From Heptranchias perlo (lineage: Eukaryota): 64,000 bases of DNA. Position numbers and translations under genes: made by a program. The notes beneath the pieces were generated by a model that saw only the letters and a list, made by a program, of their open reading frames with translations, did no database searches and had not been told where the DNA came from. Within the stretch, counting starts at the first letter, position 1, and every line of letters starts with the position of its first letter. The DNA lies in contig NC_090340.1 of NCBI RefSeq assembly GCF_035084215.1, positions 4,464,001-4,528,000 of the forward strand, given 5' to 3'. Below, one piece after another: positions 3,641 through 50,249 of this stretch.

Positions 3641-3719
3641 TCATACCTCAGCAATATGCTCTATTTTCTCAATAGGGAAATTATCAACCTTCAACAGCAA
3701 AACTACATCATAGGACGAT

Positions 3720-3735
3720 AATTAGATAGCGAATG

Positions 3736-3809
<74 letters not shown>

Positions 3810-3936
3810 TTATGTAGATGATAGATATATAGATGATGTAGATTGATAGATTAATAGATGAGAGATGGATAGAGAGATAGATAGATAGATACATACATAC
3901 ATGCATACATACAGAAATGCATCGATACATAGATAG
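3720..3936. repeat. Compound microsatellite (AT)n(AG)n(GATA)n(CATA)n
   Basis: Directly visible; abuts the 3' end of the CR1 copy starting near 3940. Confidence 0.95.
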
Positions 3937-3939
3937 TAA

Positions 3940-4738
3940 CGTAAGAACATAAGAAATAAGAGCTGGAGTAGGCCATAAGGCCCATCGAGCCTGTTGGGAC
4001 ATTCAATAAGGCCATGGCTGATCTTCGACCTCAACTCTACTTTCCCGCCGGATCAATTTATCCCTTGGTTACCTTAGAGTCCAAAATCCACCGATCTCAG
4101 TCTTGAATATACTTAACAACTGAGCAGCCACAGCCCTCTGGGGTAGATAATTCCAAAGATTCACAACCCTCTGAGTGAAGAAATTTCTCCTCTTCTCAAT
4201 CCTAAATGGCCAATCCCTTATCCTGAGACTATGCCACTAGATATTGGCTCTCCATCCAGGGAAAACAGCCTTTCAGCATTTACCCTATCAAGCACTGTAA
4301 GAATCTTTTATGTCTCAATGAAATCTCCCCTTATTCTTCTAAACTAGAGAGAGTATAGGCCCATTCTCCTCAATTCCTCCTCATAGGCTCGCCCTCTCAT
4401 CCATGGGTTCAATCTAGTGAACACTTGGTGCACCGCCTCTATAGAAAGGAGATCCTTCCTGATGTAAGGAGATGAAAACTATACGCAGTACTCCAGGGAG
4501 TGGTCTCATCAAAGCACTGTACAACTGAAGCAAGACTTCCTTACTCTTGTACTCGAACCCCCTTGGAATGAAGGCCAAAATCCCTTTGGCTTCCCAATTG
4601 CTTGCTATACGTGCACGTTAGCTTTCTGTGTTTTGTGTACAAGGACACGGAGATCTGTCTGAACACCGACATTTAATAGTTTCTCACCATTTAAAAATAT
4701 TTTGTCTTTCTATTCTTCCTACCGAAGTGAATAATCTC
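3940..4738 (-). mobile_element. CR1 LINE 3' part; left half of the copy interrupted by ERV1
   Basis: CR1 3' terminus (aagaacataagaaataagagctggagtaggcc) and RT C-terminal sequence; breaks at ...gtgaataatctc (4738) and resumes as cctcacatttcccc at 11708. Confidence 0.85.
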
Positions 4739-5595
4739 TGTTTGAAATATGCTATTAGTAATGCTACCAAGGGTTGTTAATCCTTCTTAATAATAACTTC
4801 CGCAATGATTTTGGGCCCGAGTGCAAAAGCAATGTTCTAGTGCGGTAATGCCAAATAACAAGCATTCATATAACAACGTTATAATACAGTTATATCAAAT
4901 AAACAAGGATGGTATAACCTGTACCGAGGAAGTTTCAAGATAATCAGACCGGGTATCATAGGGTGTGTGGGCCTGCGTCACCCAGAAGCTACTTCAAACT
5001 CTAGTGGGTCAGTATTCGAGTTTATATAACTTTCTGAAGCGTACTTACTTCTAGTAGCTTCTTGTAGCTTAACGACATTAGTCCCATGACGTTGTCTGTC
5101 CCTGACGTCTCCCCCCAGGGCGCCCATCGTTCCAGATGTCTTTATCTATTCTATGTTGTTAACTGTTATCCATTCTATGTACCTTATGAGCGAAGCCTTG
5201 CAATTATCTTCCGGTGTATTTTGATTGTTCGGATGTCGACGTTCAAGTGGACTCATCCTGTATATGCCAATCACGAAAGTTACCTAATTATCTGAAAAAA
5301 AAGATCCTGCAATTAATATAACAGCATTAGTCTGTATCCAGGTCCTGAGTCTTTGATTATGCCTTGGGACGTTTCTGACAATTGGTCCTCCATGTCTCGG
5401 TTTCACAGTTTTATTGCCTCTGCAATATTCTCAGTCATTTGCTTAATGTCAGGCCTATCATTTCCTGTGGGATGCTGGTTCACATTTGTATTATTACAGA
5501 TGCAAGGCCTGCGCTTCGCTTTTTAGCCAAGTGTCTGAAGCTTTGTAGGACGGAATACATGACTATGATTTGATCTAGAAATCGTATTTCTTACA
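4739..5595 (-). repeat. ERV1 3' LTR
   Basis: On minus begins TGTAAGAAATAC right after the polypurine tract AAAGGGAGAGAGA (5596-5608) and ends ...TTTCAAACA at the CR1 junction; TATATAAA on minus near 5021-5028. Confidence 0.8.
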
Positions 5596-5841
5596 TCTCT
5601 CTCCCTTTGACCCTGAGTGCAACCACTCTGGGTCATTTTTCAACTTACTTCCGCATTTAACCTTTGTCATGGTCTTACCTAGCATCACCTTGGGTTTACA
5701 TTTTATCAATATTATGTTCATATAAACACACATAGACATATATTGCTTCAGCGGGCCCCGTTTGTCAATAAAGACCCAGTGAATCAATATGCGCAACATA
5801 ATTAATTGCCATAATACACAACATTGAAAAATAATTAATAG

Positions 5842-7929
5842 TTATAACACCATTCCACGGATGGACAGAGAAATTCGCGTCTTCAGCTTTTTATACGTTG
5901 AAAATATTACACAAAACATTACAGCAACAATTATAATCAGAACAAACTGAGGAGGGGTTAAATCCTCTGAGATAATTCTTGCCCAAGGATGTTGTCCTAC
6001 GTTATATACTATTTCCCACCATTCAGTTTCTCCTAGGTGTTCTATTTCGCTTTCTATGGCCGCATTTTGTTGTTGTAGATGAATTTGGTGATGCAATGCG
6101 GTGACAGTCCGGTCAAGTGCGGTTTGAACATTCACTGACAGTTTTGGAATCGGATGTCACAATTGTATAGCACCTTCTGAGCTCCTTTTCTAAACACAAA
6201 TTCCACCTGAATTTCCGTAGCATTATGAATGTTCACTGGGATCAGGACTGAACTCGCAACTCTCGGGGGTAACTCAGGAGTAAAACAAAACAATAGAGTT
6301 AGTACAGGACACTCTTGTTTGTCTTGGAGGTAAGCCAAGTCTGATATTGTCACGCAGTAGCAACATCTTCCCGTGTATCCATGCTTTGCCTGTCCCGATT
6401 TCCATCTTCTAATATTAACAATACAGTTAGGGGAGTGCTCATCTCGGGTGAAACCACAAGCTGGGATACCTATGTGGTGACATCGTACCAACAAATCCAT
6501 GTGCCCTTGACTTCAGTACAGCAAGATCAATCTGGTGTCCACCCTGATTTCACCATCCTTTTTGAACACCTTTGGATAGCTGACAAATTCTTTATGTATG
6601 TCACCTTCAAGGACGCCGATGGACTCCACCTTAAAGATCTTTGAAGGCTTCTGATCGGGTGAAAGGCGTAGAATGACCATAGCCACTGCGAAAACGTGTC
6701 CGTCTGTTATGTCTTCCCAGGACTGATTAAACTGGTTATACAGATCCCAGGCGCCAGATATTAAAATGGTTTCCTTCATTCTCCCAAGTCCATTTATCTA
6801 GCTGTTCATCCGTTATAAAAGAAGGGATGCGATTTTTCTCAATGTCTTCCAATCCCTTCCACACCCAAGATAGCATAAACGCATCTTACATGCTGCACAC
6901 AATTCCTATGGAGATCTCAATCTTAGATTCCTCCATGTCACTGATCACTGTATTAACTTTTTGCTGAGCCTGTCCAAAGTAGTCGACCATTTCCTTCAGA
7001 GATATTAAACTTGTTGCTTTTCATAAAATGACCCTGTCACTACCCTATTCGCGGCTTTCATTATGCCTTTTAATTGCTTTCGCATGACTTTATCGTGATC
7101 CCACATGTTCTCCATGTCTATCCTGTTCCAAGCGGCCGTTCCTGTTATAGCCCCTATGCCCAACTATTCAGCCATTTCCCGTTTCCTTTTCTGTCTACTG
7201 GGGGCTGTGGTGTTATTCCTTGGGACTTTTTCTATGTCCAGTCCTGAATTTCTCTCCATAAACTGTCTAAGTTTCTCGGACAACATCTGTTGGTAGAAAC
7301 TCTCACAAGTTTCATTACACAAACCTGGTAACAAAGCAACTTTTGAAAAATTAAACAGAACAGGGAAGATGTGAAATCTCACATCATTGTACAGGGTCTG
7401 CTATGCATTGAAAACCAATAAACCATTGATGGGACCTTTGCCTGCAACAAGACACCCAGTGGAGGCCGAATGGGCAGTTCCTTCTGAAAACTTTGCATTC
7501 TCGATTACTTTAGAGCAGAAAGACCAGGATGACAGCATTCTGGTTTCTTCTCTGGGTAGGTACCCATAACAATTGACATGCCGCTTCCAGACCTGAGGGA
7601 AATTCAGACTGGTTCTCATTGCCCGTGTTCCATTAGGGAACACACAAGTGTCCTTAGTGTTCCCCATATAGGGCATGCCAAAAGGTCACTCTCCGTACTG
7701 GTGTCCGCACTCATCCGATACCACTTGAGAGTAGCTGGTTTTGTTCCCTCGCCGATAAATGTACATGTCAATCAAAGCCCGTTCCCTCCGGGTACGTGTG
7801 CCGTGTTGGCCATGGCTTGGCCTCATTGGTGGTATAACTCATGGCAACACAGTCCCAGTCGTTCCAAAGGTGTTCGGCTTCACTGAGGAACAAGATGCAT
7901 CCTAACACGACAGCCACCAAAACGTTCAT
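5842..7929 (-). pseudogene. env: ERV1 env (class I fusion glycoprotein), disrupted
   Basis: Signal peptide MNVLVAVVLGCILFLSEA from ATG 7929; furin site RQKRKR near 7180-7197; fusion peptide EMAE*LGIGAITGTAAWNRIDME; heptad region and TM FVLIIIVAVMFCVIFSTY in ORF 5842-6135; internal stops and frameshifts. Confidence 0.8.
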
Positions 7930-8599
7930 GATTCAACCTTGGTAATGTGTAATATGCCTGCAAGATGTAATACATGTTCTTGGTGAATAGAATCATAGAA
8001 TATCTGGTAGCATTTTTATTTAATTAAATGACAAGCGTATAACATATGACTTGCCGCGAACAAATTAAAAACGGTGCTGTGTACCCATGTAAACCACAAA
8101 AAATTTCCTAAAATTTAGTTTGAAATGAATCACTTTTATAGATTTGTAGCAAGAATGCTTTTAAAAACTCTATCGTGGAATACAAGGCCACAGAGGGTTA
8201 TGCTGCGTTTCGCTTTGTGGAACGGAAAATAGGTCGGAGCAAACACCAAAAAAAGGTGGAGCTGCCACGAAAGCAACATCACACAGACATGTTTTAAAAA
8301 TAGGCTTTGAACCGAAAAAATGCAGCAGCCTTTTAAACATTTAAAAGCATTCTTGATGTTAAGCCATCAGCAAATTTACTGTTTACTGAATCGTGGACTA
8401 ATCATCAACCTCCTAACCTTCCTTCTTATTCTCAGTTGAGGGGGCATCATCATTACAGATTGTCTAAGGCAAGTTACTGTGGTTTCGTGCAAGGTCGAGC
8501 TCGAAGCTTCATGTTTGTTATATTCATACGATCAGGGTATGGACAACAGTCATCCACACTCTGTATTGTTATAATTCTCACGCTAGCCACAATCCCCTT

Positions 8600-8750
8600 A
8601 AGCTCGGGTCCGTTGTACCGTTTTAGCTGATTTGAATGAACCCAGCGATCGTGGGATCGATGGGTAGGTCATTCGCAGTCTATTTTTTATACCTGTTGAA
8701 TTAATTTGTCGATAATGGGATACGGGCTTTCAATTTTTGAACCGGGGTCA
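8600..8750 (-). pseudogene. ERV1 integrase C-terminal (GPY/F) remnant
   Basis: Minus-strand translation PYPIIDKL...DRWVHSNQLKRY across a frameshift; no DDE core seen upstream. Confidence 0.65.
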
Positions 8751-9198
8751 TATTGGGCACAAGTGACACATTGGTTTACCACTTTCCCAACAACATCACC
8801 CATTGCGGGCCATCACATTCTCTGCAGCAGCCTCTGAATCAGACCATCTCCCTTCTGATGTCCGCTGGATGTATGCGTCCACTCGACAATTTCCGATCGT
8901 AACAGGTAGGAAATTCTCTGTAATCTATGGTCAAATGCCATGAACCGTCTGATTTCCTGACTGACCAGATTGGGGAATTACAATTACTGGCCGTTTTTTA
9001 CAGTACACCCTGTTCAATTAGGAAGCGCACTATGGACATCACTGGCCCTTCTGCCTCCGTTGGGAACCGATATGGCTACCTGCGATCTGGACCTTGCGAT
9101 CAACCTTACCACGTTCGTTCTTATGTGTAGCCCAACAACCCGCATTCCTCAATATGGTCTCAACGACAACTCACTCATTACATAAAAGGCACCCCAGG

Positions 9199-9640
9199 TC
9201 ATACATTTGATTTGTCCCCACATACCAGATCTTCCCCTCGTGTCTGATAAAATATTCTTCCTTGTTTTGTCCCTTTTTCCACTTGCCACAGACAACGGTT
9301 AGCCATATCCACGATAATGTCATGGCTGCTTAGCCAGTCCACTCCCAAGATACCATTATGTGGCTCTCCCTGCATTCTAGTGTGCATTATATTATGACGC
9401 ATTGTCGATATTCCTATGATTAGGCCTGTTACCACTTTTTCTCCTTTCGGTCCACCTCTTCCAAATCCTCCTAATACTATATATGCCTTCAAACCAAACT
9501 GTTGTGGCATGTCTCTCCACAGAAACATGTGAGATGGCCAGCTTTTGAGTAATAATGCTCTGGGATGGGCTCCTATCCATGCATCTACATGGGGTCTACG
9601 GTGGAGGTCCATATGTAATCAACTAACGGATCCCTCCACC
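9199..9640 (-). pseudogene. ERV1 retropepsin protease, degenerate
   Basis: RPHVDAWIG...LGGFG...GILGVDWL...VDMANRCLW; the catalytic D(T/S)G is disrupted. Confidence 0.75.
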
Positions 9641-9696
9641 GGCGAGGCCGAGGATTGTCAACTTGCATGTTGGCAGTGATAATCCGTATTGAACGG

Positions 9697-11256
9697 CTAG
9701 ATGATATCTATCCGGCCTCCTTTTCCAAAATTACCTATATGCCTTTCCAGTTGTTCCACCTTTAACCTCAAGTGTTCTATCTCTGACTCCTTACTATTTC
9801 GGTTTGGGCAAGCTGCCTGCGCCATCTTCTTAGGACATTGCTGGGAGAAATGACCTGCCTTTCCACAACAAAAACACTCTGGTCCTGACTGGTCTCTCGT
9901 TGGGACTGATGGGCAGGAAGGCTCTGGGATGTTCCCTCGTACCTCCATGGTGGGCCATTGGGCCTCTTTGGAGTTGTACCGCATGTATATTGTCCGCCCT
10001 TGCACTATGGTTTTCCCCATTTGCGGTTCATCCACCTCATCATGGGCTTCTACCGTGGGATAATACATGTTATTATTAGTACCATATTTATTATTTAATG
10101 CCCCAAGGAGATAATGGACCCACTGCCTAGGGCCGGGGCGGTCCGAACCCTGATGATCATCCGCCGGGAAGACACCTTTATAATGGTTCCATAACTTGTC
10201 CACAAAAGCCTGTGGGTTTTCGTTAGTTTCCTGCCTACTTTCGAGTAACTCTTTCAAGGCTGCCCGTTTTGAATCTGTTCCGTGCCCCATGGTTTTACAT
10301 ACAATCCCTTCAGCTTCCTCCCAGGTGCATTTCCCATTTTAAGGTCTCCTGGCAGTACCTTATATACCTCGCGGTGACAGAATGAAGTACTAACTTTATC
10401 CTTTCATTGTTATCACATTCTTGTAGATCGGAGGCTTGCTCGATCATAGCCAAGCTCGTTCTAGACTGGGCTTTTATTATCGGGATGTCATGCGCCATTT
10501 CTTTTAACTGCCAGCTATTGTGTGGTGTGGCCATTTCCCCTATGGGCTCCTCTGTTCCAATCAACTTATGTGCCTTTATCGGCATTATGCCGGCCTTGGG
10601 ACGTCGGCCAGTTTCTCCCTTGTTCAGTGCGCTTTCTCTTTATTCCCCCTGCCTGTTCTTATACTCATAGGCTGCCTCAGCCAAATCTTTGTAGTTTATC
10701 TCCTCCCAGGTGGACCTACTCCCAATATTATTGGTATTAATTTGCCTTTTGGATACTGCAAACATCATATCCTTTCGTTGTTTCAATTGCTCTTTTAATT
10801 CATTAATCTCTTTTTGACATTGGTCCTGATTACCCTGTTTGTCAGCCTTACACTGATCTTCTTGACTCTGACTAAGCACCCCTCGCAGCGCGGACCCTAA
10901 TTCCTCCACTTTTACCTCGAGTTTTTTCACTAGCTCCGTTTGTTCCTATAGGGCTGTCTGGTATTCTTACATGTTTGTACTTTATAGCTATTATCTGTCT
11001 GCACACAAGATACTGACGCCCGTGAGAGTTTCACAATACAAAGTTTTGTCAGCAATAATTTCTGACATTTTTTCGCTTCTACTTCATGTTTATTTGATTC
11101 TGACATTAACTTGCTTATCTGTAGAGATTGCCACATTAAGAATACAGCTTTCCAACTACCGTTCTTAAGTTTCCTTTCCTTAGTGAGGGTCCGTACCAGA
11201 ACCTCCAAGACTTCTATACTATAAATATCTTTCAACACGGTTCTACATAACCCCAA
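9697..11256 (-). pseudogene. gag: ERV1 gag (N-terminal coiled coil, capsid, CCHC knuckle), fragmented
   Basis: Coiled coil KKLEVKVEEL...CQKEINELKEQLKQ; MHR-like RQETNENPQAFVDKLW; zinc knuckle CFCCGKAGHFSQQC. Confidence 0.85.
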
Positions 11257-11299
11257 TTTACAATCGACATATTAATGATGTGTGGACAGCAAACCATTT

Positions 11300-11706
11300 T
11301 GCCCTTATCTTTCTATGTATTTTGATTGTTCGGATGCTGTCATTTAAGATGTCTCATCCTGTATATGCTAATCGCGAAAGTTACCTGATTAGCTGAACAA
11401 AGCTCCTGCAATTAACATAACAAGATTAGTCTGTGTTCAGGTCCTGAGTCTTTGATTATGCCTTGGGACGTTTTGTTTTCTGTCTCTGACAAATGGTCTC
11501 CAATGTGTCTGTTTCACAGCTTTATTTTTTTCGCAATATTCTCAATCACTTTGCCTGATGTCAGGCAAATCATTCCCTGTGGGATGCTGGCGACCTTTTT
11601 AGTCTCAGAGACGCTAGGCCTGCTCTTCGCTTTTTAGGCAAGTGTCTGAAGCTTTGCAAGACGGGGTACATGACTATCATTTGGTCCAGAAAATGTATTT
11701 CTTACA
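11300..11706 (-). repeat. ERV1 5' LTR, partial (inner half apparently deleted)
   Basis: Direct repeat of 5199-5595; no counterpart of 4739-5198. Confidence 0.8.
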
Positions 11707-13250
11707 CCCTCACATTTCCCCACGTTATACTCCATCTGCCACCTTCTTGCCCTTTGTTTCCTCCTCACAGCTTACTTTCCCACCTAGCTTTGTATCATTA
11801 GCAAACTTGGATACATTGCACATTGCCCCTTCATCTAATCATTAATATAGATTGTAAACAGCTAAAGCACAAGCACTGATCCTTTAGGCAGCCCACTAGT
11901 TACAGCCTCCAAACCTGAAAATGACCTGTTTATTCCTACACTCTGTTTTCTGCCCATTAACTAATCCTCCATCCATGCTAATATATTACCCCCAACACCA
12001 GGATCCCTCATCTTATGTAACAACCTTCGGTGTTGCCTCTTATCAAATGTATTTTGAAAATCCAAATATACTATATCCACTGGACCCCTTTACCTACCCT
12101 GGTAGTTTCATCCTGAAAAAAAAACTTTAATATTTTTGTCAAACACGATTTCCCTTTCATTATAACATGTTGATTGTGCCTAATCATTAATTGTGAAATA
12201 TTTCTTTAAATGTTCACCTTGTTTATCTACCACCATAGCATTTAATCTAATTTCCCAATCAACCGTAGCCAACTCGTCCATGATGCTTATTTAATTGGCT
12301 TTGTTTAAGTTTAATTTCTGGTTTTGCACTAACGTACGTAATTCTCGAACTCAACTTGAAATTCTGTCATGTTATGATCACTTTGCCCCAGAAGATCCCT
12401 TACTGTGAGATTACTAATTAGCCCTGTGTCATTATACAAGACAAGATCTAAGATGCCCTGTTCTCTGGTTGGTTCTAAGTCGTGTTGTTTTAGAAAACTA
12501 TCTCGAATGCATTCCATGAACTCGTCCTCCAAACTACTTTTGCCAATTTGATTTGCCCAGTTTTAAGTTCCCCACGATTATTGCATTACCATTGCTACAA
12601 GCTCTCTTATTTTTTGATTAATACTCTGTCCAGCAGTATAACAACTCTTCGATGGCCTATAAACTACAACCATCAAAATTTCCTTCCCCTTGTTATTTTT
12701 GTATCTCCATCCATACTGATTCTTCCGAGCCAAGATCCTTTCTCACTACTGTTTTTATGTCAACCTTTATTAAGAGGGCTACCCCGTCTCCTTTTTCATT
12801 TTTTCTGTCTTTTAGAAAAGTCAAGTACACTGGAATATTAGTTCCCAACCTTGGTTACCTAGCTATCACTTCTCAGTAATGGTCATTAGATCAAATTCAT
12901 TTATCTGTATTTGTGCCATTAATTCGTCTATCTTGATACAAATGCTTCGTGCATTCAGATCAAGCGCATTTAATTTTAATTTTTCACTATTTTTCCCTGA
13001 TTTGACCTTATTGATTGATGTACTATTACATCAAACTCTCCGTTCGATCCTGACGCACTCTGCTTACATTCATCAAAATCGCTAACACTGCTCTATGGCC
13101 TTCATTTTTCACTTTAGATTTATAAATTACCCTTACTCGAATCTTCTACCTCTTTCTTTTAATTTAAAGCCCGATCTGCCTTTCTTGTTATTCCATTCGA
13201 CAGGAAATTGATCCCAGCCTGGTTTAATTTGAGCCTACCCAAAAGGAAGA
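11707..13250 (-). mobile_element. CR1 LINE 5' part (RT and endonuclease, internally deleted); right half of the interrupted copy
   Basis: FANDTKL-type RT sequence near 11790; ORF 12329-12532 FMECIRDSFLKQHDLEPTREQGILDLV (APE). Confidence 0.85.
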
Positions 13251-13449
13251 GTGTAAGGATTTTGGACATTGAGTCACACCCTATTTTAATCTTTTGAACT
13301 ACTGGACGATTCAAAATAAAGCATTAACCCTAACTCTAAACCTAACCCTGTAAGGATTTGTACATTCACTTGGATAGTACATTTGGAGTACATTTGAAAG
13401 AAAAGGGTTAACTTGGCCTGGACATGAGAGTATCAATACATATTTTGCT

Positions 13450-14995
13450 TTTATTCATTCATGGGCTGTGAGAGTCGCTGGCAAGGCCAGCATTTATTAT
13501 CCAGCCCTAATGGCCCTTGAGAAGGTGATGGTGAGCCGCCTACTTGAATCGCTGCAGTCCTTGTGGTTAAGGTTCTCCCACAGTGCTGTTAGATAAGGAG
13601 TTCCAGAATTTTGAACCAGCGACGATGAAGGAAAAGCGATATATTTCCAAGCCAGGGTTGTGTGTGAATTGGAGGGGAACGTGCAAGTCGTGGTGTTCCC
13701 ATGCCCCGTTGCGGGTTTGGGAGATGCTATTGAAGAAGCCTTGGCGAGTTGCTGCAGTGCATCTTGTAGTTGGAAACACTGCAGCCACGGTGCGTTCTGG
13801 TGGAGGGAGTGAACGTTTTATGTGGTGCATGGCGTGCCTATCAAGCGGGTTGCTTTATGTTGGACTTTGTCGAGCTTCTTGAGTGTTGTTCGCGCTGTAC
13901 TCATCCACGCAAGTGGAGAATATTCCATCACACTCCTAACTTGTGCTTTGTCGAAGGTGGGAAGGCTTGGGGAGTCATGAGTTGTGTCATTTGCCGCAGA
14001 ATACCCAGTCTCTGACCTGCTCTTGTATTCACAGTATTTATATGGCATGTCCAGTTAAGTTTCTTGCCAATGATGAACCCCAGGATGCTGATGGTAGGGG
14101 ATTCGACAATTGTAATGGCGTTGAATGTAAAGAGGAGGTGGTTAGACTCCCTCTTCTTGGAGATGGTGATTGCCTGGCACTTGTCCGGCACGAATGGCAC
14201 TTGCCACTTATCAGCCAAGACTGGACGTTCTCCAGATCTTGCGGCATGTGGGCATGGACTGCTTCATTATATGAGGCATTGCGAATTGAACTGAACACTG
14301 TGCAATCATCAGCGAACATCCCCACATCTGACCTTTTGATGGAAGAAAGGTCATTGATGAAGCAGCTGAAGGTGGTTAGGCCTAGGACGCTGCCCTGAGG
14401 AACTCCTTCAGCGATTTCTGGGGGCTGAGATGAATGGCCTCCAACAACCATCATCATCTCCCTTTGTGTTAGGCATGACTCCAGCCACTGGAGAGTCCCC
14501 CCCCCACCCCCACCAACCTCCCGCCTGACTTCCATTGCCTTCAATTTTACTAGGGCTCCATGATGCTACACTCGGTCAAATGCTGCCTTGAGGTCAAGGG
14601 CAGTCACTCTCACCTCACCTCTGGAATTCAGCTCTCCTGTCCATGTTTGGTCCATGGCTGTAATGAGATCCGGACACAAGTGGCCCTGACAGAACCGAAA
14701 CTGAGCGTCGGTGAGCAGGTTATTGGTGAGTAAGTGCCGCTTGATAATACTGTCGACGACACTTTCTATCACTTTGCTGATGATTAAGAGTAGACTGATG
14801 CGGCGGTAATTGGCTGTATTGGATTTGTCGTTCTTTATTGTGGCTAGGACATATCTGGGCAATGTTCCACTTGGTTGGGTAAATGCCAGTTTTGTAGCTG
14901 TACTGGAATGGCTTGGCCACTGGAGCGGTTAGTTCTCGAGCACAAGTCTTCAGCACTACAGCCGGGATGTTGTCGGGGGCCTTAGCCTTTACTCT
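13450..14995 (-). mobile_element. Non-LTR LINE family B (CR1/L2 group), RT 3' half
   Basis: VTALDLKAAFDRV, GVPQGSVLG, MFADDCTVF, RSVMEYSPLAW in ORFs 13818-15001. Confidence 0.85.
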
Positions 14996-15764
14996 ATGCA
15001 TTGCAAAGCATCAAAGTGCAGACCATTTAAACCGGACAGTTGGACATCAGTGTAACTCTGCAGGAGCTATCCAGTCCAGAATCCGTAGATAGGATGTGAC
15101 TTTCAATAACAACTGACAAGGCGAAGCTTCCAGAAGCTTCAGAAGCTTCCAGAAGATTTTCAAAGTCAACAACAACTGCGAAGGAAAGAAACTGATTGGG
15201 TAGCTGGTTTCATGTAGATTTGGGGATATAAGGCGTCCATAAGGTCCATGAGTGATCCAACTAGCCACCCATCTTCATGCTATGAACAAATTGGGACTTC
15301 TCGTAACTTGGTTCGCAACTATTTGCTCAGAAGCCTATAAAAATAAGATATCATAGCAGTCAAAACAACGGCCAACATCAGAGGAACTGGAAGAAGCTTA
15401 AAGAGTTAACGACTGCAGCACGAGCTTCTCCAACAATGAGCACTTGAATACTGTGCTTCTAAACTTCGACAAAAAGACTTTCATTCTGAGCTTCAACCAA
15501 ACCACTTTTTCCCCAATCTGAAAAGACGAACCTTGATGAGAAGAATCTCGGCACATCGCTCAACGTGTCTCTCAATAACGTACCTGTTACTGAAACAATT
15601 AATTACCTACCTTTGGACCTAAACGACTGCTTCGATGCATAAGGTTGTATATTTCACTTGCTCGCTTTGCTTCATGCCTGCTTATGTGAACTTTTAAATA
15701 ATTAAATATAAAATGTTCAGAACCCGAATTTGTATTACCGGGTAGAGTAATCAACGTATTGGAA

Positions 15765-18014: not shown

Positions 18015-19622
18015 AATTCTGGCATGGATGATACCGAGAAACCAGTCTTCAACCAATTCGATTCACTCCACGTGATATCAAGAAACGGCTGAGTGCAATG
18101 GATACAGCAAAGGCTACGGGCCCCGACAACATCCCGACAGTAGTGCTGAAGAATTCTGCTCCAGAACTAGCCGCTCCTCTAGCCAAATTGTTCCAGTACA
18201 GCTACAACACCGACATCTACCCAACAACGTGGAAAATTGCCCAGGTATGTCCTGTCCACGAAAAGCAGGACAAATAAAATCTGGCCAATTACCGCCCCAT
18301 CAGTCTACTCTCAATCATCAGCAAAGTGATGGAACGTGTCGTCGACAGTGCTATCAAACTGCTCAGTTTGGGTTCTGCCAGGACCACTCAGCTCCAGACC
18401 TCGTTACAGCCTTGGTCCAAACATGGACAAAAGAGCAGAATTCGAGAGGTGAGGTGAGAGTGACTGCCCTTGACATCAAGGCAGCATTTGACCGAGTGTG
18501 GCACCAAGGAGCCCAAGTAAAATTTAAGTCAAAGGGAATCAGGGGGAAAACTCTCCAGTAGCTGGAGTCATACCCAGCACAAAGGAGGATAGTAATGGTT
18601 GTTGGAGGTCAATCATCTCAGCCCCAGGATATTGCTGCAGGAGTTCCTCAGGGCAGTGTCCTCGGCCCCACATTTTCAGCTGCTTCATCAATGACCTTCC
18701 CTGCATAATTAGGTCAGAAATGGGGATGTTGGCTGATGATTCCACAGTGTTGAGTTCCATTTGCAATCCGTCAGATAAAGAAGCAGTCTATGCTCGCATG
18801 CAGCAAGACCTGGACAACATCCAGTCTTGGGCTGATGAGTCAAAAGTAACATTCACGCCAGACAAATGCCAGACAATGATCATCTCCAACAACAGATAGT
18901 CTAAGCACTTCTCCTTTATATTCAACGGCATTACGATCGCCGAATTTCCACCGTCAACATGCTGGGGGTCACCATTGACCAGAAACTTAACTGGACCAGC
19001 CACATAAATAATACGTCTACAAGAGCAGGTCAGAGGCTGGGTATTCTGCGGCGGGTGACTCATCTCCAAACTCCCCAGAGTCTTTCCAACATCTACAAGG
19101 CACAAGTCAGGAGTGTGAAGGAATACTCTCCACTTGCCTGGATGAATGCAGCTCCAACAACACTCAAGAAGCTCGGCAACATCCAGGACAAAGCAGCCCG
19201 CTTGATTGGCACCCCAACTACCACCCTAAACGTTCACTCCCTTCACCACCGGTGCAACGTGGCTGCATCTAAAGGATGCAATGCAGCAACTCGCCAAGGC
19301 TGCGACAGCACCTTCAAACACGCTACCTCTACCACCTAGAAGGACAAGGGCGACAGGCATATGGGAGCAGCACCACCTGCACGTTCCCCTCCAAGTCACA
19401 CACCATCCCGACTTGGAAGCATATCGCCGTTCCTTCATCGTCGCTGTGTCAAAATCCTGGAACTCCCCACCTAACAGCACTGTGGGAGAACCCCACCACA
19501 CGGACTGCAGCGTTTCAAGAAGGCGGCTCACCACCACCTTCTCAAGGGCAATTAGGAATGGACAATAAATGCTGCCCTTGACAGCGATGCCCATATCCCA
19601 TGAAAGAATAATAAAAAAAATA
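18015..19622 (+). mobile_element. LINE family B inserted into ERV2
   Basis: SAPDLVTALVQTWTKE...DIKAAFDRVWHQG; YSPLAWM; A-rich 3' tail near 19605-19622. Confidence 0.85.
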
Positions 19623-34347: not shown

Positions 34348-36363
34348 CTATAGAGGGGTACAGGTAAAGCAAAACAAAACACGTCGTTTTAAATTTAGAA
34401 GATTATTTACTTTAGTATTGCATTTCCCCAAATTCAAATCAATTAAGATGATTCATAATCAGCATGTGTTTGTTGCATTTCATTGAAATGAAAATAATAC
34501 TATTGTACATATTTGCCGGACATCTGCTACTATTATAAATGCTCAAGAATCAGCTGTATTTATAATGCGTTTTCTCACGTCTCTCACAAGCATAACAATA
34601 ATCTCACATACAGGGAATTACCTTCAATTGCAGTATTTAATGGTTGTAATGTTGACACAACGGGGCCATGCTTCGACCAGTAAATCCCACAAATAGCAAC
34701 GAACAGCTCATCCTTTTCTATTGTTACGGATTGACTGGGGAATTCTGGATAAAATAACAGGAAATTGCTTGCATTCATTCCAATAATGCAGTGGGATTTT
34801 TGGATTCCGCAAAGAAAAGCTCACATACTTGTTGGGATACCTGTCCCCAAATACAGCAGTATTCCCTCACTTCTAAACTCAAGCGTCAGACTAGATTGAT
34901 CCTTAAATCCTGCAATATAGCTGGAATTCAAAGCCTGGGAATGCACAGCAGGGCTCCGATCTCCCCGCCCCCCCCCCCCCCCCCGCGAAACGGCAATAGA
35001 TCCGCTCGAACCTGGAAAACGGCATATACGCTGTTCATTCAACATTTACGCCGATATTCTGCCGAATTTAGAGCAGATCATGATCCCAGGAGAAAGTCAA
35101 TCCTCACTGCAGCTCCCCCTCCCCGAAAAAAAACTACTTTCTGATTTAGAGCAAAAGTGCAATTAACTTTGCTAAAATAAGACCCTGAGCTGGATATGTG
35201 ATTTCCCCACCAACTTTCCACCAGATATTCTGAATTAGATGCGGACTAACAGTATGATTAACGCTCTAAATAAAACAAAATAAATATCCCGCTCCATCTC
35301 ACTTTGCGTTGCAATCAGCGCTATGTTTGCAAAAAAATTCAATTTTGAACCTAAGCCGGGGTCCAGTTACCAATTAGGGCAGTTTTGAGGAAAAGTATAT
35401 AAGGACATAATCATAATGTTTATTTTTAAAAGTCAGATTATTAACACAAATAGGCGTCTGTTACTTTCACTGACTTCAATTGCGGAACGAAACTTAAAAA
35501 CAACGGTGATTACAATCCAAAAACAGATGATTTATGTGGTTGCATCCTTAGAGTCTGAAACTGCTTTATAAATTAAATTCCAATTTGATTTATGAACATT
35601 TTTAATATAGCTGTTGCTGGAACGTTATTTTACATGGACTCCCAGATATATTGATGGGAACTGTTCCCACATCATTGGTTGGTATTAATTTTAGAATTGT
35701 TTTATGTCTTTGTACTCGACAATACATTTTGAAACGATCAAACTTTCAGCCTTTGGATTTGTGAGAATGTACCCAATGTGATCTATTTTTACAATCACAA
35801 CATTACATGCATTCCCTACGGATACAGGTCATTCCACTCAAGTTGGTAATAAAGCATCGACAATTTATTTCATAATTTCTGTAATATTACCTGAGCTTGA
35901 GTAACAATATATATTGTTTCAAAATAAACATGAGGTACAATTCGCGCTGATTTTAACTTGCAATTTGTGCGTTGAAGGTATTTAACGTAGATTTTCATTG
36001 TGAATATTCAGACGTAATATCACGAATCCATGATAATAGATACAAGAAAGGTACAGGTGCCATTTTTAGGTATTGAAATTATTTGTCACACAATTCGTAC
36101 CAATTTACGGAAAACGATGTACACAAAAACACCGATTGGACCATCCAGTCTGTTTCACACAGTTGTAATGCCTTGTGCATCACAATATATACACGCCACC
36201 CTACCCGGTGTCGCGTTATTTCCTGGGAGAGGCAAAGAAACAGATAAAAAACAAAGATAATTCGGGAAAATATCTCGCATATTCCTCTCCGACGATTGAA
36301 ATAAGTCCAGGACATTACTCCGGGCCTGATTCCAACGACCCCATCCCCTGCAATATCACTTAC

Positions 36364-36681
36364 TGTGGACAACAAGATTTGATCCAGTTCCGTTTCTGAT
36401 CGTATTTCTCTGGTGTTTGTCTCCGCAGTAATAAATCCCAGCAAGCTGGAGACGGACATCAAGGAGCTGGAGAGAACCCTGCCCTATCCTAATTAAAAAT
36501 AGTTTCTTCCTGTCTGAGTTTGTTTGCAGAAATACGGTTTCGCCGAATCTCCACCAGTAAACATTCACTTGTGAATTAGCTGGAAAAGGAGTGAACGCAC
36601 AAGCGAAGGTAATGTTTGCACCGGCCATAACAATCTTGCTTTGGGGACTTTGTGACAATTGAAACACGGCATTGCCATCAA
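36364..36681 (-). CDS. Gene A V-set domain exon with germline J-like end (NGTGSNLVVH)
   Basis: LSQSP...ITFAC...VYWW...GIYYC...GTGSNLVV; polypyrimidine acceptor cttacacag| and donor |gtaagt; phase 1-1; 318 nt. Confidence 0.9.
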
Positions 36682-36821
36682 CTGTGTAAGAAAAAAAAAA
36701 CACATGTAAACTGCAACTAACCAAGTCAAACCTGATGGAAAATGGTTGATAGATAGAGATAGACAGTCGGGTAGCAACAGACCCCAAGATAGATATAAAA
36801 AGAGGAGATTACGGAAATAAC

Positions 36822-48310: not shown

Positions 48311-49498
48311 CATTAACTTACAGAATACAATTTCTAACGAGACACTGGCAAGCTAAGCAATGATACCTTATATATCAATGCTCGAAAAAATATAGATGGA
48401 CGATAGAAATGTATGGAGGGTCATGAAATCACTGTAACAAATACATCTCTCAACATAACTCGCAATTAAGAACAAGTAAAAAGGGGTTCAATTGTTAATA
48501 TGGTTTGCAGTAGTTCGCATTTTGACGTTCTAACTTTTTAATTTTAAAGAATGATCGATTCACGATCAAATTGCTTTAATACTGTATATATTAAAAAAAC
48601 AGATTGAAAACCATTCATCTCAACTGGAATATTTTGAAAAGTTGTCAGAAGTTTAGTAACTTCCGAGGCAGTTTTAGAACGTTAGAGAGGATTTTGAAGT
48701 AGTTATTGGGAACAGTTTTGGAAAGGTTAAGTTGAAATACAGCTAAAGGTAGTTGAACAAGAGAGGTAAAAGAAGAACATAAGCTGGAAGAAAGGGAAAG
48801 CTGTACATAATAGACAAACAGGAAAGGTGCGGGGGACTCGTCGTAGAGGGACCCAATGATTAAACCAGAATGCTGCAGAGTGAGAGATATAACGCTTTGA
48901 ATTCAACAGTTAACTTGTCACCTAAGCATACATGTTATTCGTCATGTTCTCAGTCAAGAGTCAGGTTTAATAGTGAACGTCTACCAGTCGTCCTCCCTAA
49001 AATACATTCTACTCAGTTAAACCCAGCAAATGATGTTCCATCGTCGTAGTGAAATGAGATTTATTGCGCTCCGTGTGTTGATTTAAATATTGTTTATCTA
49101 TGCTAATATCAATAATGTATTTGTAACGATATTAATGTATCAGTAATGTTGAACCTCATATTCGTTACAAGTTGCATCTTAGTAGAAGCAATTAAATAAA
49201 ATCATCAATGGCAAATATGTGTCACGATCAGTCCTTGGTAGCATTATATTTAAATGTCACTTTACTGAACGTTATATTGCAGTGCTGTCCATTCCAAAAT
49301 GTTAATTAATTCGGAACGTCTGTACATGAAGCAAGGCATTGAATAAGAATTTAAATGTAACTTCCAAAAGAAACAATGCAAACTCGTGGATGCCTCACAC
49401 GTGGATCATGATAAAATATTAAAAAGCAGCCGGTACCGTTTTTTATTTTGTTCGCTTTCCAAGTTTGTGAAATAATTTCAGGTACAAATTCCACTTAC

Positions 49499-49819
49499 CG
49501 TGGATAAGAAGTTTTGATCCAGTTCCATTAGCAATCCGACCACCCGGATATTTCACTCCGCAGTGATAAACTCCAGAGTCCTCAGCACTGACATTCAGGA
49601 ACTGAAGACAGGCCTCACCTTTCTTCAAATGAATAAATCGTTTTCTGCTGTTTGAACCTAACTTTAGAAACTCATTTTCGCCGAGTTTCCACCAGTAAAC
49701 ACTCACATTTGAATTATCTTGAAAAAGAGGGAACTCACATTGAAAAGTAATGTTTCCACCTGCGATCACCTGAGCACTTTCAGGGGCTTGGAACGCTCTG
49801 ATCTGCGCATCTGCAACAG
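49499..49819 (-). CDS. Gene B V-set domain exon with germline J-like end (NGTGSKLLIH)
   Basis: AFQAP...ITFQC...VYWW...EDSGVYHC...GTGSKLLI; ttctcacag| ... |gtaagt; phase 1-1; 321 nt. Confidence 0.93.
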
Positions 49820-50249
49820 CTGTGAGAAAACAAATGCAGCAACAATTATATATATCGCACACACACTGCTTGCGGACAATAATTATCAACCTTTGGTAGT
49901 AAGAAGCATTTGCAGATGATTCAATGTAATCTTTGAGGCAACAATGTATGATATGACAAGCCTTAGCTGTGCTGTCTGTAATTAGTTGATTTTACTCAGT
50001 GAAATCCGTAGCATTTATTGTGCCTTATTTTCCAATTTCTATTTTCAAAGTAACCTGATATGTAGCGCAGACCACACCTGTAAATGTAAGTTGTACATGC
50101 CTTCTCTGACAGATGTTGAAGGTCAGATGGATCAAACATGGAGCAGATCAACTGAGATTTGGCTGATACAAAGCAGGGATTAGGTTCTTGAGGTAACTCC
50201 GGGACGAAAGGACTTCATTGAAAGATTTTTCTTGTATTATGTTCATGTG

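Follow-up and report, generated by a model that had tools for sequence, protein, structure and literature searches.

Lokiretroviruses, or lokiorterviruses (PMC7947760, PMC9040795), form an RT clade sister to the other retroviruses and have an integrase closest to CGIN1/NYNRIN. They carry an F-type Env and a tether plus RNase H, features that recur (the Env type by prediction) in the shark family described here together with the integrase side (unrooted tree), and a separate smc-like gene occurs in some lokiretroviruses only. Cartilaginous fish, with 0 of 6 genomes positive in the loki paper, were not among the hosts first reported, as a preliminary description of the present DNA had stated. 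Snakehead retrovirus (SnRV) and its ERV relatives, assigned to clade Huo on the class III side, resemble the shark family in RT motifs and tree position, in a Gag with a single CCHC knuckle and a coiled coil at its N-terminus, in having gag and pro-pol in one frame, and in a long TM subunit without ISD. However, SnRV has an Env frame of 1134 aa, whereas the shark Env has about 700-750 aa and a short tail; accessory ORFs and a long Env tail are described for SnRV in PMC12193657, whereas the shark family has no room for a 3′ ORF, and the shark integrase is nearer to loki. CmiERV lineage I of the elephant shark (PMC4422223), also SnRV-related, is likened to the shark family by description, and the 'NYNRIN-like' pols of frog and coelacanth have the same domain order but reside in tetrapods and the coelacanth. 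The foamy virus Env (PMC11468914) has an F-like fold as well, but is of 990 aa and three-part.

Concerning the origin of retroviral Env, Wang & Han left four scenarios open and preferred independent gains, because the loki Env, unlike the canonical one, resembled F. This choice is directly affected by a lineage that combines the RT of a retrovirus with an integrase and a predicted F-type env that are both loki-like. In a window of 64,000 nt from Heptranchias perlo (NC_090340.1, 4,464,001 to 4,528,000), we find what is best explained, with a probability of about 0.8, as a defunct provirus with internal deletions from a multi-copy family of shark retroviruses, with an RT that goes with SnRV on the class III side, an Env of predicted F type, and a sister family from which one intact, likely domesticated env survives. 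The cartilaginous-fish host proposed in the preliminary description was right.

Anatomy of the window provirus

The element at 4739-11706 on the minus strand is a real but broken, internally deleted provirus (Table 1). The LTRs, polypurine tract, gag coiled coil and env of about 695 codons that had been noted from the letters alone were all recovered; the gag N-terminus is coiled-coil-like through weak coil-family matches, with no SMC family match in Pfam, and 234 nt separate the env stop from the polypurine tract.

Table 1. Features of the provirus, in window positions
Feature	Positions	Strand	Remarks
Left target-site duplication copy	4734..4738		5 bp, 1 change from GAGGT read on minus strand
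3′ LTR	4739..5595	-	full, 857 nt, TG...CA
Polypurine tract	5596..5608	-	directly before 3′ LTR; same tract in sister copies
env pseudogene	5842..7929	-	ATG 7929 to stop 5842, 695 codons; stops and frameshifts
Integrase C-terminal remnant	8560..8735	-	GPY motif
Integrase HHCC zinc-finger remnant	8736..8912	-	Pfam Integrase_H2C2, E 4.8e-10
N-terminal RT remnant	8913..9200	-	
Protease remnant	9201..9640	-	Asp_protease_2 in sister copy L020
gag pseudogene	9697..11298	-	coiled coil at the N-terminus; capsid region; single CCHC knuckle
5′ LTR remnant (U3 side)	11299..11706	-	deletion takes in the remaining LTR, the primer site and the leader
Right target-site duplication copy	11707..11711		5 bp

The LTR pair is 81% identical over 411 columns, with a distance of 0.18. 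About 20 differences had been counted over the first 155 bases, which proved too few (26-27 columns, gaps included, from either end), and the age assigned to the insertion, namely old, holds. The R-U5, primer site and leader absent from the window 5′ end are present in the paralogue L014, and the primer of the family is tRNA-Asn. The 5-bp duplication, a length also given for ERV3/ERV4 in PMC4299795, is perfect in L018 and has 1-2 changes in the window, L013 and L014. The insertion interrupts a LINE, the two halves of which adjoin each other in other copies of that LINE, and a chimeric LTR pair from two sites was ruled out, as the duplication and the split LINE agree.

About 2 kb, comprising the rest of the RT, the tether and the RNase H, is missing at ~8915, and a deletion of ~0.73 kb that removed the catalytic core joins the C-terminal part of the integrase to its zinc finger; these losses had been passed over in the preliminary description. 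The RT, tether, RNase H and integrase are all present in full-length sister copies, and the tether and second RNase H, a trait common to all retroviruses, were found in L021, L030 and L020; the dual RNase H is not visible in the window because this region is deleted there. Both junctions are spanned by 9 of 40 matches, equal to 7 independent sites, and the RT junction alone by 7 of 40. Since the two pol deletions are common to at least 7 independent insertions, the defective form appears to have spread in trans. One copy would first have lost the RT, tether and RNase H and afterwards the integrase core, both deleted forms would have been copied in trans by helper proviruses, and the window insertion may later have been duplicated twice along with its V-set immune-gene neighbourhood.

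Placement of the RT, integrase and tether

In an RT tree of 37 rows, built without ERV-L, epsilon, beta or Odin and with three motif-matched loki references (L094-L096), the window family and the sister family grouped at 99/92, and both joined the SnRV record L062 and the frog/coelacanth pols at 87/82, a moderate support in which SnRV is a long branch. The retrovirus side was split from loki plus outgroup at 99/95, the foamy virus RT stood separate from the shark family, and a Gypsy element was ruled out by the same tree. The closest named RT relatives are the 'NYNRIN-like' pols P0005-P0008 and P0012, with 49-58% identity, which fall on the shark family's side in the integrase tree as well. 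A viral-contig scan with a single RT query gave no match. The crocodilian and turtle ERV4 was ruled out by the presence of the CCHC knuckle and GPY motif, as ERV4 is described in PMC4299795 as without a gag zinc finger and without a GPF/Y motif.

The preliminary description had called the element lokiretrovirus-like and suggested that it could widen the hosts of this group to cartilaginous fish or define a new sub-lineage. In favour of a true lokiretrovirus, the Env TM profile matches the loki Env best, the integrase groups with loki at 100/99 (unrooted tree with a long-branch warning, CGIN1 not included), the tether gives 77 bits to loki vs 36 to SnRV, and the full copies have the dual RNase H. 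However, loki is defined by the RT, and a clade of the shark family with loki was rejected (AU p=0.002); the shark RT is 48% identical to SnRV vs 30% to loki, and in the loki paper's alignment its motifs agree with SnRV and not with loki, whose RT signatures are absent. Additionally, the gag is unrelated to that of loki, with no match at E<=1, the protease-RT stretch is short as in SnRV and unlike the long one of L094/L095, and the shark SU is longer, with an Ig-like stretch. The coil, put forward as the SMC-like trait of loki, is part of gag, where SnRV has the same kind of coil, and not a separate smc gene. Membership in loki is thus highly improbable, and as the RT lies next to SnRV and the loki clade is rejected, the element does not widen the range of loki hosts.

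The loki-like traits of env and integrase are nevertheless real, yet are carried with a class III-type RT. The lineage might be a recombinant whose integrase and env arrived as one block from a loki-like donor, instead of both being retained from the common ancestor, as the RT and integrase trees conflict, an integrase clade with SnRV was rejected (p=0.006), the integrase adjoins env, and repeated domain swaps were reported by Wang & Han. But the Env is just 18% identical to that of loki over 287 columns, the foamy Env is F-like too (PMC11468914), and the tether, upstream of the RNase H, is likewise loki-like; moreover, the integrase tree, which has no outgroup, brings together the long branches of SnRV and foamy, therefore shared ancestry explains the loki grouping equally. 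We consider such a block transfer unlikely, although a serious alternative.

Envelope type

The window env has a signal-peptide-like start, an Ig-like stretch, a furin-type site, a heptad region, a cysteine-rich F-type module and a membrane anchor. The furin-type site RQKRKR lies at 7196, ~445 codons from the end (~440 had been estimated), and CX6CC is absent in every frame, in line with the earlier observation. The proteins P0001-P0003 have neither CX6CC nor CXXC, no TLV_coat-type Pfam match was obtained for env, and a gamma/epsilon-type env was ruled out, as ISD and CX6CC are lacking.

The shark Env profile matched the loki Env at 87.5% (E 3.6e-6), and the TM profile gave E 0.011 for SnRV and a non-significant E 0.14 for foamy; the similarity of env to SnRV is small throughout (E 0.004-0.011). 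Pfam F0 was matched by 2 of 67 env pieces (best E 0.002), and by none of the window env pieces and intact shark proteins. The best Foldseek matches of an Env model of pLDDT 52 and pTM 0.31 were pneumo-/paramyxovirus F and foamy Env, at TM-scores of 0.09-0.15 for this weak model, with the foamy Env 8rm1 at E 4.2e-4; a full-length AF2 model was unusable (pLDDT 33). The VIA wide structure search listed only helical hairpins and no F proteins, and PDB sequence searches with P0002, A1 and A5 found nothing relevant. The profile and model matches predict an Env of the paramyxo/pneumovirus F type, as the preliminary description had suggested, similar to the fusion proteins of measles and RSV. The virus would have entered cells by means of an Env that is cleaved by furin and refolds in the manner of F.

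The intact env of the sister family

Outside the window, a single locus of the H. perlo genome (L033; G000:C6:50325215-50327470) holds an intact sister-family env of 754 codons, the only one of 81 env matches that is full length without stops. Its protein and those of three named sharks (genera Heterodontus, Chiloscyllium and Scyliorhinus; accessions, in no set order, XP_072333160.1, XP_067889054.1 and GCC29952.1) are 85-91% identical, and the furin site, fusion peptide, cysteines and membrane anchor are kept. The dN and dS are 0.076 and 0.223 between intact and decayed copies (9 pairs) and 0.106 and 0.217 between decayed ones (36 pairs), which by subtraction leaves a dN on the intact side of about one fifth of dS. 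At the level of codon substitution, this shows purifying selection on the intact env.

Each shark could instead have retained, separately and by chance or recently, an open frame of a related virus. The four intact envs do not form one supported clade, as L037, a decayed copy, groups with the G000 gene (SH-aLRT 90), and the two LTRs of the locus are just 0.068 apart over 199 nt. However, the pol directly upstream is decayed and lies 0.12-0.15 from other copies, the gene has 0 defects in 754 codons whereas all 9 examined paralogues are broken with at least 3 defects each, the envs of the named sharks branch like their species (98, 99), and the low intact-side dN argues likewise. Additionally, contigs of run X1, possibly RNA and from another organism with ~5% divergence, span the intact ORF and part from it at an AG immediately upstream of the ATG, and the loose end of one contig has a single genome match, 27 kb upstream and ending at a GT, as for a splice to a unique host exon common to both organisms. 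Separate retention is thus improbable, and the intact env is likely a domesticated F-type shark gene, a host gene of great age.

Run X7 contigs do not cover the ORF, run contigs on the upstream 10 kb are swamped by repeats so that exon structure is not visible, and the 8 stretches examined around the env showed no host gene in open frames with 170 aa or more. Word-based homologue searches with env found only shark proteins, and the ESM Atlas gave one chordate cluster at 0.83, a lead only. The gene would use a host exon, joined by splicing to the former acceptor of the viral env, and its product would be a cleaved, membrane-anchored glycoprotein. Since the gene has lost neither the furin site nor the fusion peptide, the cysteines or the anchor, cell-cell fusion is our best guess for its job, at about even odds, while receptor blocking against kin viruses and other surface roles are each distinctly less probable.

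Like syncytins, percomORF, the shark syncytin-like candidates and Ovex1, a domesticated env of birds from the class III side (according to PMC4299795), the shark gene is an env that stays intact next to a decayed pol, is retained in several species under purifying selection and is possibly transcribed. The shark syncytin-like preprint (bioRxiv 10.64898/2026.05.06.723177) kept only ISD and CX6-7C envs with epsilon-like pol, with synteny within one genus, whereas the present gene is of predicted F type, derives from an SnRV-side virus and occurs in at least three orders; no published account of an intact F-type shark env was found. Tentatively, and at somewhat less than even odds, an F-type env may have been captured once before the living shark orders split and have served since as a spliced, fusion-competent host gene, which would make it the first F-type syncytin-like gene and one of the oldest domesticated envs, with the lineage, through its class III RT and loki-type integrase and env, pointing to an F-type Env ancestral to retroviruses and lokiretroviruses. 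The intact gene offers a natural, expressible F-type Env for structure and assay, and a candidate host function invisible to ISD/CX6CC-based screens. Additionally, the shark neutral rate is calibrated by LTR distances of 0.07-0.09 in a family that predates the divergence of several shark orders.

Placement of the window provirus

We conclude that the element is a decayed member of a shark ERV family on the side of snakehead retrovirus (SnRV), carrying a lokiretrovirus (loki)-like env and integrase; its interest rests mainly on a likely domesticated env in a sister family and not on the host range of lokiretroviruses. The LTRs, polypurine tract, gag N-terminal coiled coil and env of 695 codons noticed in the preliminary description are all present (Table), as are the roughly 440 codons after the furin-type site (~445 by our count to the env end), and the CX6CC motif is indeed missing from this env. 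Gag also has one CCHC knuckle, and every gene is broken. The flanks are two halves of a single LINE with a 5-bp duplication, a perfect 5-bp duplication occurs at copy L018, and five copies retaining the 5′ end have a primer site that pairs with tRNA-Asn(GTT), as 4/4 host tRNA loci checked confirm. Near-exact tRNA-Asn 3′ matches number 180 in the H. perlo genome, strongly clustered on few contigs (C23, C1317, C1349 and others).

Table. Features of the window
Feature	Position	Strand	Remarks
Whole provirus	11706 -> 4739	minus	
3′ LTR		minus	857 nt, TG...CA; directly after polypurine tract
5′ LTR remnant		minus	408 nt left; 81% identical to 3′ LTR
Ig V-set exons (two)	36356-36808; 49443-49991	minus	
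LINE-derived stretches (two, inverted)	13443-15005; 18094-19619		78-86% complementary; flank third LINE piece
TA/GA/GATA microsatellite run	3712-3951		

The RT tree comprised 37 rows, namely 3 of 20 window-family and 3 of 8 sister-family loci (a single frame had to yield at least 110 residues), 11 of 15 protein matches, six foamy, six gamma, three loki and four outgroup rows and SnRV, a sampling that leaves out ERV-L, epsilon, beta and Odin. The SnRV reference was a 10,688-nt record (L062) whose RT agrees with the SnRV row of PMC7947760, the loki references were three contigs picked by loki motif, and the others were foamy, gamma and gypsy/caulimo-type records. Both shark families joined (99/92), grouped with SnRV and frog and coelacanth pols (87/82), and were split from loki plus outgroup (99/95). 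Lokiretrovirus identity, and with it the suggested extension of the loki host range, was rejected, as an RT clade with loki gave p=0.002. In the alignment of PMC7947760, the window family misses the loki RT signatures and shares those of SnRV instead. That cartilaginous fish were not among the first reported loki hosts agrees with the supplement of Wang & Han 2021, where 0/6 chondrichthyan genomes were positive (PMC7947760). SnRV-related ERVs, which define clade Huo (PMC6001957), are already described from elephant shark (PMC4422223). The three loki references (L094-L096) are near-intact, teleost-type lokiretrovirus loci from a metagenome collection, with gag, pol and env all open in L095.

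Loki-like integrase and predicted F-type env

The integrase shares 42% identity with loki and 31% with SnRV, and the tether (RT_RNaseH region) scores 77 versus 36 bits, whereas RNase H and RT are closer to SnRV. The integrase tree (29 rows, unrooted, with a long-branch warning) placed both shark families with vertebrate pols and loki, apart from SnRV and foamy (100/99). For env, a TM-side profile of 67 stop-free pieces matched loki Env at 87.5% (E 3.6e-6, 287 columns, 18% identity) versus E 0.14 for foamy and 0.011 for SnRV; the smaller alignment A1 gave 2e-4, 0.014 and 0.004, respectively. Pfam F0 is matched by loki Env itself and by 2/67 env pieces (best E 0.002). An AF2 model (pLDDT 52) was built from input that excluded loki, foamy and F sequences; each of the 33 rows that the structure search listed for it was either foamy Env or a pneumo-/paramyxovirus F protein (best E 8.4e-6). 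The TM-scores were low, however, at 0.09-0.15, and a VIA search returned helical hairpins only. Because good E-values go with low TM-scores and hairpins, the F-like env proposed from the sequence is kept as a predicted F-type: the loki profile and the F/foamy matches favour it, whereas the TM-scores and pLDDT do not. Foamy Env is described as F-like (PMC11468914), in contrast to the independent env gains preferred by Wang & Han 2022 (PMC9040795).

A weak Ig-domain signal (Ig_3, E 0.004) lies in the SU part, in the env N-terminal half of L016, L021, L024 and L025, and one protein record (P0001) is named Ig-like in UniRef; this stretch is possibly a receptor-binding module.

Copies, shared deletions and age

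Searching the 3.25-Gb genome with the window env (40 of 348 candidates scored) gave at least 55 matches, mostly 77-85% identical, and the 20 best non-self loci were fetched. The flanks of L013 and L014 match those of the window provirus at 99% and 89%, so these are later segmental duplications. The region with the two V-set exons, which resemble NKp30-type receptors, is triplicated on contig C18 at ~0.8-Mb spacing (99% and 89% identity), with the provirus carried along.

The window copy has lost ~2 kb (most of RT, tether and RNase H) and ~0.73 kb (integrase core). RT is retained in L016, L021 and L030, and stop-free stretches of sister copies match RVT_1, RT_RNaseH, RNase_H, rve and protease families. 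Among 40 junction-region matches scored (40 of 98 candidates), nine, at seven independent sites, spanned both deletions and seven the RT deletion alone; L028 has both plus a later insertion. Deletions common to independent sites, some with that of RT only, suggest a two-step origin of a defective form and its copying in trans. A young retroelement, which has an open RT of 784 aa plus a GIY-YIG-like end and which we take to be Penelope-like, has inserted into several copies (L031:3268-5619, L017, L018).

The LTR pair differs by K2P 0.181 (395 sites compared), the paralogues by 0.19 and 0.21, three other window-family copies by 0.05-0.14 and the sister family by 0.068-0.092. At an assumed shark rate of 2.2e-10 (PMC4422223), the window copy would date to ~410 My and other copies to 115-310 My. 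A mammalian rate would make all ages ten times younger. The shark orders sharing the sister env split roughly 200 My ago or more; since the sister family must be older than that split, the slow rate is favoured. A Mesozoic or earlier origin is likely for the window copy, in line with the old insertion first noticed, although rates may differ between regions.

The intact env of the sister family

With a natural env piece as query, the homologue search found nothing beyond unannotated proteins from three sharks, Chiloscyllium punctatum, Scyliorhinus torazame and (same cluster) Heterodontus francisci; their identity to the window family is ~45%. In H. perlo, one of the 81 matches listed (59 of 4613 candidates scored) is full-length and stop-free (C6:50325215-50327470). 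The provirus around it is decayed: its pol is broken, gag is absent and the LTRs are reduced to remnants. The four intact proteins are 85-91% identical and all keep the furin site, fusion peptide, cysteines and anchor, while 9/9 paralogues examined are broken, with 3 to 20 defects each. Intact versus decayed copies gave dN 0.076/dS 0.223, and decayed copies among themselves dN 0.106/dS 0.217; dN/dS on the intact side, obtained by subtraction, is ~0.2. In the env tree the three named sharks follow the known order relationships (98, 99) with the H. perlo gene outside them; decayed copy L037 groups with that gene at 90, and the four intact envs form no supported single clade.

Contigs of run X1, from another organism (RNA by our guess, ~5% divergent), cover the intact ORF; run X3 covers most, X2 parts and X7 none. 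One X1 contig departs from the locus at an AG that lies two bases ahead of the ATG; the remaining end of this contig matches the genome at exactly one place, 27 kb upstream, where the match stops at a GT within unique sequence. The contig is likely a spliced host transcript, and the sister-family env is likely domesticated. The literature search found no description of the intact shark gene, which Wang & Han 2020 on gene co-option may list, nor of any shark ERV on the SnRV side that carries an F-type env; the screens in the accessible parts of a 2026 shark preprint (bioRxiv 10.64898/2026.05.06.723177) and of Chen et al. covered gamma-type envs only. Further putative F-type env families are present in the genome, as at least 14 of 20 extra env matches (L120-L139) are just 35-47% identical to both studied families.
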